From the NCBI RefSeq assembly GCF_050920415.1, contig NZ_CP169309.1: a stretch of 64,000 bases of DNA; one strand, 5' to 3'. How positions within the stretch are numbered: the first letter of the stretch is position 1; each line of letters begins with the position of its first letter. The notes beneath the pieces were generated by a model. It saw only the letters and a list, made by a program, of their open reading frames with translations, did not search any database and was not told where the DNA came from. The position numbers were made by a program, and so were the translations under genes. Positions 20,645 to 30,469 of the stretch are shown piece by piece. The DNA comes from Escherichia coli (GTDB taxonomy: Bacteria; Pseudomonadota; Gammaproteobacteria; Enterobacterales; Enterobacteriaceae).

Positions 20645-22108
20645 ATGTCTTTAGCAAAAGATAATATATGGAAACTATTGGCCCCACTGGTGGTGATGGG
20701 CGTCATGTTTCTTATCCCTGTCCCCGACGGTATGCCACCGCAGGCATGGCATTACTTCGCTGTGTTTGTGGCAATGATTGTCGGCATGATCCTCGAGCCA
20801 ATTCCGGCAACAGCGATCAGTTTTATTGCGGTTACTATTTGCGTTATTGGCAGTAATTACCTTCTCTTTGATGCCAAAGAATTAGCTGACCCAGCGTTTA
20901 ATGCGCAAAAACAGGCGCTGAAATGGGGTCTGGCTGGTTTTTCCAGCACCACGGTATGGCTGGTATTTGGCGCATTTATTTTTGCATTAGGGTATGAAGT
21001 TTCCGGGTTAGGTCGTCGCATTGCCCTTTTCCTGGTGAAATTCATGGGCAAACGCACGCTGACGTTAGGTTATGCGATAGTCATTATCGACATTCTGCTG
21101 GCACCGTTTACACCGTCCAACACCGCGCGTACCGGGGGTACGGTTTTTCCGGTCATTAAAAACCTGCCGCCGCTGTTTAAATCATTCCCGAACGATCCGT
21201 CCGCGCGTCGTATTGGCGGCTATTTGATGTGGATGATGGTCATTAGTACCAGTCTGAGTTCGTCCATGTTTGTCACCGGTGCGGCACCAAACGTGCTGGG
21301 TCTGGAGTTCGTCAGCAAAATTGCCGGCATCCAGATTAGCTGGTTGCAGTGGTTCCTCTGCTTCCTGCCGGTTGGCGTTATCTTACTTATCATTGCGCCG
21401 TGGCTTTCCTACGTGCTTTACAAACCGGAAATCACACACAGTGAAGAAGTAGCAACCTGGGCGGGTGATGAACTAAAAACCATGGGTGCGCTGACACGCA
21501 GAGAGTGGACGCTGATTGGCCTTGTATTGCTCAGCTTAGGTTTGTGGGTATTTGGCAGTGAAGTCATTAATGCTACTGCGGTAGGTCTGCTGGCAGTTTC
21601 GCTAATGCTGGCCCTGCACGTTGTGCCGTGGAAAGACATTACCCGCTATAACAGCGCATGGAACACGCTGGTCAACCTGGCAACTTTGGTTGTGATGGCT
21701 AATGGCCTGACTCGTTCTGGCTTTATTGACTGGTTCGCCGGTACCATGAGTACGCACCTGGAAGGATTCTCACCAAACGCAACGGTGATTGTACTGGTTC
21801 TGGTGTTCTACTTTGCGCACTACCTGTTTGCCAGCCTGTCTGCGCACACCGCAACCATGCTGCCGGTTATTCTGGCCGTCGGTAAAGGTATTCCGGGCGT
21901 ACCAATGGAACAACTGTGTATCCTGCTGGTGCTGTCTATCGGTATCATGGGCTGTCTGACGCCGTATGCAACCGGTCCTGGGGTGATTATTTACGGCTGC
22001 GGCTATGTGAAATCAAAAGATTACTGGCGACTTGGTGCAATCTTCGGGGTGATTTACATCTCTATGTTGCTGTTGGTTGGCTGGCCGATTCTCGCCATGT
22101 GGAACTAA
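20645..22108 (+). CDS. citT: Citrate:succinate antiporter CitT (DASS family)
   Basis: 487-aa polytopic membrane ORF downstream of citG. Confidence 0.93.
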   Translation: MSLAKDNIWKLLAPLVVMGVMFLIPVPDGMPPQAWHYFAVFVAMIVGMILEPIPATAISFIAVTICVIGSNYLLFDAKELADPAFNAQKQALKWGLAGFSSTTVWLVFGAFIFALGYEVSGLGRRIALFLVKFMGKRTLTLGYAIVIIDILLAPFTPSNTARTGGTVFPVIKNLPPLFKSFPNDPSARRIGGYLMWMMVISTSLSSSMFVTGAAPNVLGLEFVSKIAGIQISWLQWFLCFLPVGVILLIIAPWLSYVLYKPEITHSEEVATWAGDELKTMGALTRREWTLIGLVLLSLGLWVFGSEVINATAVGLLAVSLMLALHVVPWKDITRYNSAWNTLVNLATLVVMANGLTRSGFIDWFAGTMSTHLEGFSPNATVIVLVLVFYFAHYLFASLSAHTATMLPVILAVGKGIPGVPMEQLCILLVLSIGIMGCLTPYATGPGVIIYGCGYVKSKDYWRLGAIFGVIYISMLLLVGWPILAMWN

Positions 22109-22175: not shown

Positions 22176-22221
22176 GATTTAATAGATAGTATTCAGTGTA
22201 TGTATGAGTTCCACACCCATT

Positions 22222-23028
22222 ATGAAAGCATTCTGGCGTAACGCCGCGTTGCTCGCGGTTTCTCTGCTTCCCTTCTCTTCTGCCAACGCCGTGGCGTTGC
22301 AGGCAAAACAGTATGGCGATTTTGATCGCTATGTCCTGGCCCTCTCCTGGCAAACCGGATTTTGCCAGAGTCAACACGATCGAAATCGTAACGAACGAGA
22401 TGAATGTCGCCTGCAAACCGAAACGACCAACAAAGCTGATTTTCTGACCGTACATGGTCTATGGCCAGGATTGCCTAAATCGGTTGCTGCCCGTGGTGTT
22501 GATGAACGCCGCTGGATGCGCTTCGGTTGCGCTACTCGCCCAATCCCGAATCTGCCAGAAGCACGCGCCAGCCGGATGTGTTCATCGCCGGAAACTGGGT
22601 TATCGCTGGAAACGGCAGCTAAACTAAATGAAGTCATGCCGGGAGCTGGCGGTCGTTCCTGCCTGGAACGTTACGAATATGCCAAACACGGCGTCTGCTT
22701 TGGTTTTGATCCGGACGCTTACTTCGGCACGATGGTACGTCTGAATCAAGAAATTAAAGAGAGCGAAACCGGAAAATTTCTTGCGGATAACTATGGTAAA
22801 ACAGTGAACCGCCGTGATTTTGATGCCGCCTTTGCCAAAAGCTGGGGAAAAGAGAACGTGAAAGCCGTTAAGCTAACGTGCCAGGGTAACCCTGCGTATT
22901 TGACTGAAATTCAGATCTCGATCAAAGCTGACGCCATCAACGCTCCGCTTTCTGCAAACTCATTCTTGCCACAACCACACCCAGGCAACTGTGGCAAAAC
23001 CTTTGTGATTGATAAAGCAGGTTATTAA
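22222..23028 (+). CDS. rna: Periplasmic ribonuclease I (RNase T2 family)
   Basis: 268-aa ORF from MKAFWRNAALLAVSLL (signal peptide); the in-frame ATG at 22204 is an alternative start. Confidence 0.92.
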   Translation: MKAFWRNAALLAVSLLPFSSANAVALQAKQYGDFDRYVLALSWQTGFCQSQHDRNRNERDECRLQTETTNKADFLTVHGLWPGLPKSVAARGVDERRWMRFGCATRPIPNLPEARASRMCSSPETGLSLETAAKLNEVMPGAGGRSCLERYEYAKHGVCFGFDPDAYFGTMVRLNQEIKESETGKFLADNYGKTVNRRDFDAAFAKSWGKENVKAVKLTCQGNPAYLTEIQISIKADAINAPLSANSFLPQPHPGNCGKTFVIDKAGY

Positions 23029-23257: not shown

Positions 23258-23668
23258 ATGTCCAGACCAACTATCATCATTAACGACCTGGATGCCGAAC
23301 GCATCGATATTCTGCTGGAGCAACCTGCCTATTCTGGTTTGCCAATCGCCGACGCGTTAAACGCAGAGTTGGATCGCGCCCAAATGTGTTCGCCAGAAGA
23401 GATGCCACACGACGTGGTGACAATGAACAGCCGGGTTAAATTCCGCAATCTTAGCGATGGCGAAGTGCGTGTGCGCACGCTGGTGTATCCGGCAAAAATG
23501 ACCGATAGCAATACTCAGCTTTCCGTTATGGCTCCGGTAGGTGCCGCACTGCTGGGGCTGCGCGTTGGCGATTCCATTCACTGGGAACTTCCGGGCGGCG
23601 TTGCAACCCACCTTGAAGTGCTGGAACTCGAATACCAGCCAGAAGCTGCTGGCGACTACCTGCTTTAA
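23258..23668 (+). CDS. rnk: Regulator of nucleoside diphosphate kinase Rnk (GreA/GreB-like)
   Basis: 136-aa ORF; sequence and synteny. Confidence 0.92.
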
Positions 23669-23699
23669 TCCCATCTGCACAAGCGACAACTCGCTTTGC

Positions 23700-23727
23700 C
23701 CAGAGGATGCACTCGCATCCTCTTTCC
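23700..23727 (+). terminator. Putative terminator after rnk
   Basis: agaggatgc-actc-gcatcctct hairpin followed by TTCC. Confidence 0.5.
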
Positions 23728-23810
23728 GCTCAAATATCAACCAGATTTATCATTTTGCTCTTAAGCACAGCATTCTAATCTGAACTGGTTATTCATCTGC
23801 GGAACCCCAT

Positions 23811-23900
23811 ATGAGCGAAGCTCTCAGTATCACTGCGTTTTATATATTCATAGCAGCTATTATTGTTGCTGCAGTGCTATACCTTGAACAACGCTGGTAG
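23811..23900 (+). CDS. Hypothetical 29-aa hydrophobic peptide (MSEALSITAFYIFIAAIIVAAVLYLEQRW) in the rnk-uspG gap; unverified
   Basis: ATG-initiated 30-codon ORF with a single predicted TM helix; no convincing Shine-Dalgarno; lies where I expect ybdR in K-12. Confidence 0.2.
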   Translation: MSEALSITAFYIFIAAIIVAAVLYLEQRW

Positions 23901-24023
23901 TACCTGGTTTTATTTATTTTCCAGATCAATCGCAAATTCAGATCGAATCAGCCTCGCAAATCATAGATTCATAATCAATAATGTGCTGTTATGTATACAT
24001 GCAAAAACAAGGAGAGAATGCTT

Positions 24024-24452
24024 ATGTACAAAACAATCATTATGCCAGTGGATGTATTTGAAATGGAATTGAGCGACAAAGCTGTTCGCCACGCTGAATT
24101 CCTCGCCCAGGATGATGGAGTTATTCATCTACTTCACGTACTACCGGGGTCAGCCAGCCTGAGCCTGCACCGTTTTGCCGCTGATGTACGTCGTTTTGAA
24201 GAGCATCTGCAACATGAAGCAGAAGAACGTTTGCAAACGATGGTCAGCCACTTCACCATCGATCCTTCCCGCATTAAACAACATGTCCGTTTTGGTAGCG
24301 TGCGGGATGAAGTCAATGAGTTGGCAGAAGAACTGGGGGCTGATGTTGTCGTTATCGGTTCGCGCAACCCATCGATTTCGACCCATCTGTTAGGTTCTAA
24401 CGCCTCAAGCGTTATCCGCCACGCTAATCTGCCTGTACTGGTCGTTCGCTAA
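24024..24452 (+). CDS. uspG: Universal stress protein UspG
   Basis: 142-aa ORF starting [11 protein letters not shown]; GGAGA RBS 8 nt upstream; ORF-track extension trimmed. Confidence 0.93.
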
Positions 24453-27245: not shown

Positions 27246-27992
27246 ATGTTAAAAAAGATACTTTTACTGGCTCTGCTTCCTACAATCGCCTTTGCAGAGG
27301 AACTTCCTGCTCCGGTAAAAGCGATTGAAAAACAGGGCATTAAGATCATCAAAACGTTCGATGCCCCCGGCGGAATGAAAGGTTATCTCGGCAAGTATCA
27401 GGATATGGGCGTCACCATCTACCTGACTCCAGATGGTAAGCACGCTATCTCTGGTTACATGTACAACGAGAAAGGTGAAAACCTGAGTAACATGCTTATC
27501 GAAAAAGAAATTTATGCGCCAGCCGGACGCGAAATGTGGCAACGGATGGAACAATCGCACTGGCTCCTCGACGGTAAAAAAGACGCGCCAGTCATAGTCT
27601 ACGTTTTCGCCGATCCGTTCTGCCCATATTGTAAACAGTTCTGGCAGCAGGCGCGCCCGTGGGTTGATTCTGGCAAAGTACAGTTGAGAACATTGTTGGT
27701 TGGGGTTATCAAACCAGAAAGTCCGGCGACAGCCGCGGCAATTCTGGCCTCTAAAGATCCCGCAAAAACCTGGCAAGAATATGAAGCCTCTGGCGGCAAA
27801 CTTAAGCTAAATGTGCCTACAAACGTAAGTGCAGAGCAAATGAAAGTGTTAAGCGACAACGAGAAACTCATGGACGATCTGGGGGCAAATGTCACACCGG
27901 CTATCTATTACATGAGTAAGGAAAATACGCTGCAACAGGCCGTGGGGTTGCCCGATCAGAAAACGCTTAATATCATCATGAGAAATAAATAG
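27246..27992 (+). CDS. dsbG: Periplasmic thiol:disulfide interchange protein DsbG
   Basis: 248-aa ORF from [12 protein letters not shown] (signal peptide) with CPYC active site; divergent from ahpC. Confidence 0.93.
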
Positions 27993-28199
27993 AAGGTAAT
28001 TCATGGGTGGTTGAAATACATTCTTGCTTTTCAACCATTCTAAAAACGCATGAATTGCTTCTTCCCCTCCTGACAACTGTGTTACTTTAGAAAAACTTAA
28101 TCCAGAGTTAAGTAATAAAACATAACAAATATAAATAAAACAGTAGAATCATTGATTGCAAGAATGATTTATGGAAAAGATAATATAACGGAGTATGTT

Positions 28200-29102
28200 A
28201 TGGCTAATCTTTATGATTTAAAAAAATTCGACCTCAATTTACTGGTCATATTTGAGTGCATTTATCAACACCTCAGCATTAGCAAAGCAGCAGAATCATT
28301 ATATATAACGCCATCTGCCGTTAGTCAGTCGTTACAACGTTTACGCGTGCAATTTAATGACCCGTTATTCATCCGCTCAGGGAAAGGTATCGCGCCGACT
28401 ACAACAGGGTTAAATCTGCATCACCATCTTGAGAAAAATCTCCGAGGCCTTGAACAAACGATCAATATCGTTAATAAGTCTGAGCTGAAGAAAAATTTTA
28501 TTATCTACGGTCCTCAGCTTATTTCTTGTAGTAATAACAACATGCTAATCCGCTGTCTAAGACAAGATACTTCAATCGATATAGAATGCCATGACATACT
28601 GCTTTCAGCTGAAAACGCTGAAGAATTGTTAGTTCAACGCAAAGCTGACCTGGCAATTACACTGCAACCAGTAATTAGCCGCTCTGTCATCTGCATGCCG
28701 GTACATACTATTCGCAATTCTCTTATATGTAGCAACAAACATCCTCGTATTACCGATACCAGTAACTATGAACAAATTATCGCCGAAGAATTCACCTTGT
28801 TGATATCTAAATCAGCAGGGATTGACGAAATTCAAATGGACATAGATGAACGTTTTATGAACCGTAAAGTTTCATTTCGCAGTTCTTCTTTGTTGACGAT
28901 AATTAATAGTATTTCTGTTACTGACTTATTGGGCATTGTGCCCACCGAACTGTACGATTTACATCGTGATTTTTTGAAGTTACAAGAGATAAAACTGGAA
29001 CGACCACTTCCTACGGTTAAACTTTATATTTCCTATAACAAGGCTTCGTTGAACAACCTTGTCTTCTCACGATTCATAGATCGTTTAAATGATAGCTTCT
29101 GA
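28200..29102 (+). CDS. ybdO: LysR-family transcriptional regulator YbdO
   Basis: 300-aa AT-rich ORF starting MANLYDLKKFDLNLLVIFE with LysR HTH. Confidence 0.88.
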   Translation: MANLYDLKKFDLNLLVIFECIYQHLSISKAAESLYITPSAVSQSLQRLRVQFNDPLFIRSGKGIAPTTTGLNLHHHLEKNLRGLEQTINIVNKSELKKNFIIYGPQLISCSNNNMLIRCLRQDTSIDIECHDILLSAENAEELLVQRKADLAITLQPVISRSVICMPVHTIRNSLICSNKHPRITDTSNYEQIIAEEFTLLISKSAGIDEIQMDIDERFMNRKVSFRSSSLLTIINSISVTDLLGIVPTELYDLHRDFLKLQEIKLERPLPTVKLYISYNKASLNNLVFSRFIDRLNDSF

Positions 29103-29248
29103 TTTATTACCACGGATAAATGTTATATTACGCATCAATTGATTCATTGTGTGAATATAAAATAATGTGCTCTATCTTGCTTCGTTTACCCTATAATTAG
29201 CGGATTCATCTCACAAGTCACCCAGTAACGTTCAGAGAGCGTTTTCAG

Positions 29249-30469
29249 ATGTCTATTTATAAAATCCCTCTTCCGCTGAATATTTTAGAAGCTGCACAGG
29301 AACGTATTACCTGGACACTTAACACCTTGCCCCGTGTTTGCGTTTCTTTTTCGGGGGGTAAAGATTCCGGATTAATGCTGCATCTTACCGCCGAACTTGC
29401 CAGAAAATTGGGAAAAAAAATCTGCGTTTTGTTTATCGACTGGGAAGCACAGTTCTCTTGTACCATCGACTATGTACAGTCGTTACGCGAGTTGTATACC
29501 GACGTTATTGAAGAGTTTTACTGGGTAGCACTCCCACTCAAGACGCAAAATTCCCTTTCACAATACCAACCAGAATGGCAGTGCTGGGAATCTGATGTCG
29601 AATGGGTGCGTCAGCCCCCGCAAGAAGCGATAACCGATCCTGACTTTTTCTCCTTTTACCAGCCAGGCATGACCTTCGAACAATTTGTACGTGAGTTTGC
29701 CGAATGGTTTTCACAAAAACGTCCGGCGGCGATGATGATCGGCATCCGTGCGGATGAGTCCTACAACCGTTTTGTCGCCATCGCCAGTTTAAATAAACAA
29801 CGTTTTGCCGATGATAAGCCCTGGACCACAGCCGCACCAGGCGGTCACTGCTGGTACATTTACCCCATCTACGACTGGAAAGTAGCTGATATCTGGACCT
29901 GGTATGCTAATCATAAATCCCTATGTAACCCATTGTATAATATCATGTATCAGGCAGGCGTTCCCCTGCGTCATATGCGAATTTGCGAACCTTTTGGCCC
30001 GGAGCAACGGCAAGGATTATGGCTCTATCACGTTATCGAACCGGATCGCTGGGCTGCTATGTGCGCACGAGTTAGCGGGGTAAAAAGTGGCGGCATTTAC
30101 GCCGGACATGACAATCATTTTTATGGTCATCGGAAAATCCTCAAACCAGAGCATTTAGACTGGCAAGAGTATGCATTATTGCTGCTTGATAGCATGCCGG
30201 AGAAAACGGCTGAGCATTACCGCAACAAAATTGCCATTTACTTGCATTGGTATCAGAAAAAAGGTATCGAGGTGCCACAGACCCAGGACGGGGACATTGG
30301 CGCGAAAGATATCCCCTCCTGGCGGCGAATTTGCAAGGTGTTACTGAATAACGATTACTGGTGTCGGGCATTATCATTTAGCCCAACCAAAGCGAAGAAT
30401 TATCAGCGTTATAACGAACGGATAAAAGTAAAACGTCAGGAGTGGGGAATACTATGCAACAACAATTAA
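29249..30469 (+). CDS. ybdN: PAPS-reductase-like (ATP pyrophosphatase fold) protein YbdN, IbrA-like
   Basis: 406-aa ORF with SGGKDS P-loop-like motif near the N-terminus; AT-rich; synteny. Confidence 0.88.
   Translation: MSIYKIPLPLNILEAAQERITWTLNTLPRVCVSFSGGKDSGLMLHLTAELARKLGKKICVLFIDWEAQFSCTIDYVQSLRELYTDVIEEFYWVALPLKTQNSLSQYQPEWQCWESDVEWVRQPPQEAITDPDFFSFYQPGMTFEQFVREFAEWFSQKRPAAMMIGIRADESYNRFVAIASLNKQRFADDKPWTTAAPGGHCWYIYPIYDWKVADIWTWYANHKSLCNPLYNIMYQAGVPLRHMRICEPFGPEQRQGLWLYHVIEPDRWAAMCARVSGVKSGGIYAGHDNHFYGHRKILKPEHLDWQEYALLLLDSMPEKTAEHYRNKIAIYLHWYQKKGIEVPQTQDGDIGAKDIPSWRRICKVLLNNDYWCRALSFSPTKAKNYQRYNERIKVKRQEWGILCNNN

Follow-up and report, generated by a model that had tools for sequence, protein, structure and literature searches.

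A ybdR-less haplotype of the rnk-uspG locus of Escherichia coli carries yldA, a small membrane protein gene resembling yoaI

The window analysed here is a stretch of 64,000 nucleotides of an Escherichia coli genome (assembly GCF_050920415.1, contig NZ_CP169309.1), in which the genes citT, rna and rnk (regulator of nucleoside diphosphate kinase) precede uspG (universal stress protein G), itself followed by ahpF and ahpC on the minus strand (Table 1). The rnk gene is 99.5% identical in nucleotides to that of K-12. In K-12, the 1239-bp gene ybdR lies between rnk and uspG on the opposite strand, as a previous sequence-only reading of this DNA had stated. In the window, rnk and uspG are separated by 355 bp (23669-24023), and neither tblastn with the K-12 YbdR protein nor a relaxed tblastn detected any trace of ybdR in this gap. 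The coordinates and the searches thus agree with that reading on a short gap devoid of ybdR.

Table 1. Features of the rnk-uspG locus and its left flank, in window coordinates.
Feature	Coordinates	Strand	Remarks
citT	20645-22108		left of rna
rna	22204-23028		between citT and rnk
rnk	23258-23668	+	left flank
Two hairpins 3' of the rnk stop	23677-23723	+	fold z = -4.96
Haplotype segment, 276 bp, unlike K-12	23730-24005	.	blastn and census
Weak SD-like GGAA	23801-23804	+	7 nt 5' of the yldA ATG
yldA, 29 aa, window-type allele, Ser6 variant, MSEALSITAFYIFIAAIIVAAVLYLEQRW	23811-23900	+	RefSeq, NF041476
yldA-uspG spacer, presumed uspG promoter	23901-24023	+
uspG SD, AGGAG	24010-24014	+	inside the yldA-uspG spacer
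uspG	24024-24452	+	right flank

The gap holds a small ORF made of an ATG, 28 further codons and a TAG. The hydropathy of its product peaks at 2.65 (Kyte-Doolittle, 19-residue window, residues 5-23), which fits one predicted transmembrane (TM) helix and the earlier description of a single-TM peptide. An ATG-initiated ORF of at least 29 codons occurs in 66% of the shuffles of the gap with the same composition; an ORF this long is therefore expected by chance, and the reality of the gene rests on conservation and annotation rather than on its presence. When the region from rnk through uspG was compared by megablast with 5426 complete E. coli genomes, identical DNA turned up in strain MFDS1022581, where RefSeq calls the ORF yldA, "small membrane protein YldA". 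The peptide matches the YldA equivalog model of NCBIfam (NF041476) over its full length (1-29 of 29) with 57.9 bits (E = 6.8e-16; curated cutoff of 45 bits), and its ATG sits 142 nt past the rnk stop, on the same strand, which is the YldA arrangement. We are nearly certain that the ORF is the known gene yldA and that the window carries a ybdR-less haplotype.

The K-12 protein (MAEAFYILIGFLIMAAIIVMAVLYLENHS; b4734-class, NF041476 and PF23689) is one of 36 new small proteins revealed by chromosomal SPA-tagging and immunoblotting (VanOrsdel 2018, PMC6001520, Table 1), and this evidence of synthesis pertains to the K-12 allele only. The window allele shares 52% identity with it. The two proteins have the same length (29 aa), a single TM helix, a common C-terminal core (AAIIVxAVLYLE) and the same score on NF041476 (57.9 bits each), and their genes are both found ~140 nt past rnk on the same strand. 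They differ in that 15 of the 29 residues are identical, the DNA being unalignable, and in the 3' neighbour of the gene, which is uspG at 123 nt in the window and the convergent ybdR at 3 nt in K-12. They also fare differently with the YldA-like family of Pfam (PF23689, gathering score 27): the K-12 allele scores 73.6 bits and the window allele a marginal 26.5 bits (E = 6.5e-06), below the gathering score, and the model appears centred on K-12-type sequences. Since window-type YldA misses the gathering score by 0.5 bit, Pfam-based annotation would overlook yldA in about one-third of E. coli. The acidic N-terminus and the basic residues past the helix suggest a topology with the N-terminus out and the C-terminus in.

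The two alleles belong to two distinct haplotypes. In K-12 MG1655, yldA lies 137 nt past rnk on the same strand, and the convergent ybdR ends 3 bp beyond its stop codon. Nucleotide homology between the window and K-12 stops at 23729, just past the hairpin of the presumed rnk terminator, and restarts at 24006, 18 nt 5' of the ATG of uspG. Between these points there are 276 bp in the window and 1611 bp in K-12 (the latter comprising its yldA allele, ybdR and the ybdR-uspG intergenic region), and the two segments have no similarity even with sensitive blastn. The alignment to K-12 that had been suggested as a way to delimit an indel thus gives no definable junctions: the segment, which takes in yldA, the DNA 5' of it and nearly the whole uspG upstream region, is a different haplotype that cannot be aligned. 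Around the K-12 yldA-ybdR block we found no indel junctions, flanking direct repeats or mobile-element signatures, and homology fades on both sides; the sole repeat candidate is 16 nt long at 81% identity, and by our estimate chance alone would give about six such pairs in that region.

The census of the 5426 complete E. coli genomes gave 1818 with the ybdR-less window-type gap (including 536 and Nissle 1917), most of their segments being 95-96% identical to the window. K-12-type yldA is found in 3605 (including O157:H7 and O121:H19), and 3579 of these copies are at least 99% identical. As one class or the other is carried by 5423 of the 5426 genomes, yldA is a core gene of E. coli with two allele classes, and ybdR goes with one class only. 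The absence of ybdR is an ordinary polymorphism, affecting about one-third of E. coli genomes, and the window haplotype is one of two old haplotypes that cover essentially all E. coli. The window-type haplotype is also common to E. albertii and other Escherichia representatives, and no ybdR remnant was found in its Escherichia carriers. The similarities of the two haplotypes reach beyond the genus: the window-type yldA region resembles that of the Citrobacter sp. R56 group, and for the K-12-type yldA and uspG upstream region the resemblance is to C. amalonaticus, C. koseri and Enterobacter. The yldA-uspG spacer of the window is homologous to the spacer of E. albertii and of the Citrobacter sp. 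R56 group, and alignable to K-12 over its final 18 nt only.

Neighbouring regions are also variable. The uspG gene is unusually polymorphic in E. coli (nucleotide identities of 92.1% between K-12 and 536 and of 91.4% between the window and 536), while the adjacent rnk is 99.3-99.8% identical. The differences in uspG are clustered in blocks, which suggests mosaic recombination. A few kb from yldA, the region 27790-29290 (3' end of dsbG, citR/ybdO) is another deeply divergent allele block, with 75-85% identity to K-12 and 90-96% to 536.

The history of ybdR does not look like that of a recent acquisition. The third-position divergence of K-12 ybdR from the ybdR of Salmonella, Citrobacter and Enterobacter equals that of rnk and uspG, so there is no sign of recent import from any sampled genus. 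Judging from these divergences, ybdR is probably old at the rnk-uspG site. Independent losses, more than one, are visible. Enterobacter asburiae TN152 (locus L058, ~1073-1165) is ybdR-less and keeps a remnant of YbdR residues 381-411 after yldA; relative to a ybdR-positive relative (L027), it shows a clean indel with 1262 bp missing. The remnant and the clean indel indicate an independent deletion of ybdR in Enterobacter. The second case is E. coli HH97, whose ybdR has an internal deletion and persists as a remnant. The locus of HH97 (NZ_CP116409.1, locus L003, 2824-3493) has a hybrid arrangement seen in 1 of the 5426 genomes: the 5' part of a K-12-type yldA is fused to ~78 nt that are 85% identical to the sequence following yldA in the window, and then comes a G-rich decayed remnant of ybdR codons 2-67, with ~65% amino acid identity to every YbdR tested. 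The flanks are 100% K-12-like. This arrangement could be a recombinant or an assembly error.

We then placed yldA in the context of the Enterobacteriaceae. A scan with Rnk, using one genome per species, provided 80 enterobacterial loci, in which rna, rnk, ybdR, uspG and ahpF were mapped and YldA-like ORFs were sought between rnk and uspG. All four combinations of presence and absence were found: both genes (K-12, C. sedlakii, many Enterobacter, Lelliottia, Leclercia and Pseudenterobacter), yldA without ybdR (the window, E. albertii, other Escherichia, several Citrobacter, Lelliottia and Phytobacter), ybdR without yldA (Salmonella, some Enterobacter and Silvania), and neither (the C. freundii complex, Kluyvera and most Kosakonia). 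With or without ybdR, yldA has exactly 29 codons and lies ~145 nt past rnk in all 36 loci where it was found (the window and 35 others), which belong to Escherichia, Citrobacter, Enterobacter, Lelliottia, Leclercia, Phytobacter, Kosakonia and Pseudenterobacter and encode 35 distinct peptides. Six residues (M1, E3, A21, V22, L25 and E26) are invariant among these 35 sequences. The aligned DNA has invariant start and stop codons, and the variable sites are most numerous at third positions (19, 18 and 28 sites at codon positions 1, 2 and 3, respectively). The mean pairwise pS of 0.62 exceeds the pN of 0.24, indicating purifying selection on the protein, and the values are 0.55 and 0.15 in the C-terminal half. 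The 5' region of yldA also contains a 23-nt stretch (23735-23757, AAATATCAACCAGATTTATCATT) with a single mismatch when Escherichia is compared with the Citrobacter sp. R56 group. This conservation exceeds that of the coding sequence, and we recognised no known box in the stretch. It may be a regulator site or a promoter element.

The signals for the expression of yldA are faint in the window. The absence of a clear ribosome-binding site had been pointed out before, and this is right in so far as the window has only a weak GGAA; orthologues have a G-rich run at the same distance (GGGGAC in Enterobacter, GGGAA in K-12). Upstream, the second hairpin past rnk (23702-23723) consists of AGAGGATGC-ACTC-GCATCCTCT followed by TT, and is presumably the rnk terminator, even if a terminator consensus scan of 23600-24100 returned nothing and did not call it. 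The T-tract is short, so read-through from rnk is possible. All 14 aligned loci, which come from six genera (Escherichia, Citrobacter, Phytobacter, Kosakonia, Lelliottia and Enterobacter), have the same core stem in this hairpin (GAGGATGC/GCATCCTC) with a variable loop, and the stem is more conserved than the neighbouring coding sequence. The hairpin may do more than terminate transcription, e.g., form the 3' end of a UTR-derived RNA. Downstream, there is no evident terminator between yldA and uspG, which are on the same strand, 123 nt apart. In K-12, the transcripts of yldA and ybdR are reported to overlap convergently as an excludon (PMC12288877). Judging from sequence, the two haplotypes would thus place both yldA and uspG in different transcriptional surroundings.

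In the literature searched we found no published function for YldA, and we turned to its relatives. All 35 YldA sequences match NF041475, the YoaI model of NCBIfam, in a single register with YldA 3-29 facing YoaI 8-34 (best E = 1.2e-8), and no other family is matched by more than 3 of the 35. Reciprocally, the second-best family for the K-12 YoaI is that of YldA (E = 0.035). The window YldA scores 30.2 bits on NF041475 (E = 3.6e-07), below the 45-bit cutoff, which means that YldA is related to YoaI without being a YoaI. We gathered the relatives of YoaI by a full phmmer scan, aligned them, and compared this alignment with that of YldA using hhalign: the probability is 96.7% (E = 3.7e-10, score 39.4, 27 columns). 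The control scores reached at most 11.9 when all columns were shuffled and 23.1 when only the TM core was shuffled, and 12.5 in the reversed alignment. From these profile comparisons, YldA looks homologous to YoaI, although physical constraints common to single TM helices can account for part of such a similarity, and homology does not guarantee the same partner.

YoaI, an inner-membrane protein of 34 aa, is an activator of the sensor kinase EnvZ, to which it binds; its residues S26, V27 and E31 are invariant, and the E31A and E31Q variants lose both EnvZ binding and activation (PMC11429745). These three residues align with A21, V22 and E26 of YldA, all of which are invariant in YldA. Both proteins have a single TM helix ending in LE[RQ]xx, with C-termini in the same register and an acidic residue before the helix (E3 in YldA, E8 in YoaI). 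YoaI, which is PhoB-regulated, differs by five additional N-terminal residues (MNDQM) and an SSF motif, both absent from YldA, and by its location at yeaK-yeaL, a locus different from that of yldA. Other small proteins act in a comparable way: MgrB and SafA on PhoQ, and SamT/YdgU on RstB, are shorter than 70 aa, have one TM helix and directly contact the kinase (PMC12648545, PMC13425233). Their families gave no match to YldA in the NCBIfam and Pfam scans, and the likeness is mechanistic only. The suggestion of the sequence-only reading that the peptide belongs to the class of small single-TM regulators of membrane proteins is nevertheless in line with the similarity to YoaI.

These observations lead to a model in which YldA would insert in the inner membrane, like YoaI, MgrB, SafA and SamT/YdgU, and would use its TM helix to bind a larger protein of the membrane, for which a sensor histidine kinase is the likeliest candidate. 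The invariant juxtamembrane Glu26, as the counterpart of Glu31 in YoaI, would take part in this binding. We propose tentatively that YldA is a paralogue of YoaI whose helix and Glu26 serve to modulate a larger membrane protein, with a sensor kinase as the most likely target. A more specific version, which we consider speculative and rather unlikely, is that YldA is an unrecognised YoaI paralogue tuning a sensor kinase, whose two ancient allele classes, 52% identical, differ in affinity for the partner or in regulation. The explanation as a whole (identity of yldA, haplotype and kinase-type mechanism), weighted mainly to the identity of the gene, has our high confidence.

The main rival to a kinase modulator is a non-kinase membrane partner, a serious contender even if we would not count on it. 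YldA would then serve a transporter, a respiratory complex or a stress protein partner, either as a regulator or as a small accessory subunit, on the model of AcrZ, KdpF, CydX and MgtS, and its likeness to YoaI would reflect common descent, not a common target. Many small single-TM proteins do act on transporters and complexes (PMC12648545). The strict synteny of yldA with rnk, and usually with uspG, hints at a role in stress more than in a specific two-component system, and yldA appears in a list of genes induced by NaF stress that also contains envelope and osmotic stress genes (PMC10100675). However, YoaI is the one relative that has been characterised, its target is a sensor kinase, and the residue needed for that action is invariant in YldA; no gene of a transporter or complex is consistently adjacent to yldA.

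We find it very improbable that the ORF is a type I toxin, damaging the membrane and restrained by an antisense or nearby small RNA, one of the possibilities raised initially. The size and hydrophobicity of YldA fit such a toxin, the K-12 excludon (PMC12288877) could supply an antisense RNA in that strain, and overexpression of YoaI delays growth (PMC11429745). Yet yldA is a single-copy gene, conserved vertically and in synteny across many genera, its fixed 29 codons being under purifying selection, and the K-12 protein is detectable in ordinary LB cultures (PMC6001520), which is unusual for a repressed toxin. In addition, the window has no convergent gene, and scans of 23600-24100 revealed no direct or inverted repeats and no sigma-70 promoter on either strand, hence no conventional one for an antisense transcript; over the scanned interval Rfam gave no match above the gathering score, only a spurious snoRNA below threshold. 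Finally, a chance, untranslated ORF or a scar of ybdR deletion, which the shuffles, the weak SD and the missing ybdR might suggest, does not survive the comparative data, within the reach of computation, and seems to us hardly credible: the ORF is annotated as yldA in identical DNA, precedes an intact ybdR after rnk in K-12, C. sedlakii, many Enterobacter and other genera, is found in 5423 of 5426 E. coli genomes with invariant length and a predominance of third-position substitutions, encodes a protein detected in K-12 (PMC6001520), and lies in a gap with no YbdR-derived sequence.

The gene yldA is thus already named, annotated and experimentally detected in K-12, and the loss of ybdR is a common polymorphism. 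Because the gene is known and the haplotype common, the observation in its initial form matters little. Its by-products are of more interest. First, yldA is core in E. coli and has two deeply diverged alleles. Second, its 29 codons are conserved across many enterobacterial genera, independently of ybdR. Third, the similarity to YoaI, including the glutamate that YoaI requires for EnvZ activation, provides a concrete hypothesis for an uncharacterised small protein. If a paralogue of YoaI does tune a sensor kinase here, the two classes of YldA, one of which goes together with ybdR and a different uspG upstream region, would give lineages of E. coli a different wiring of an input to envelope or stress signalling.
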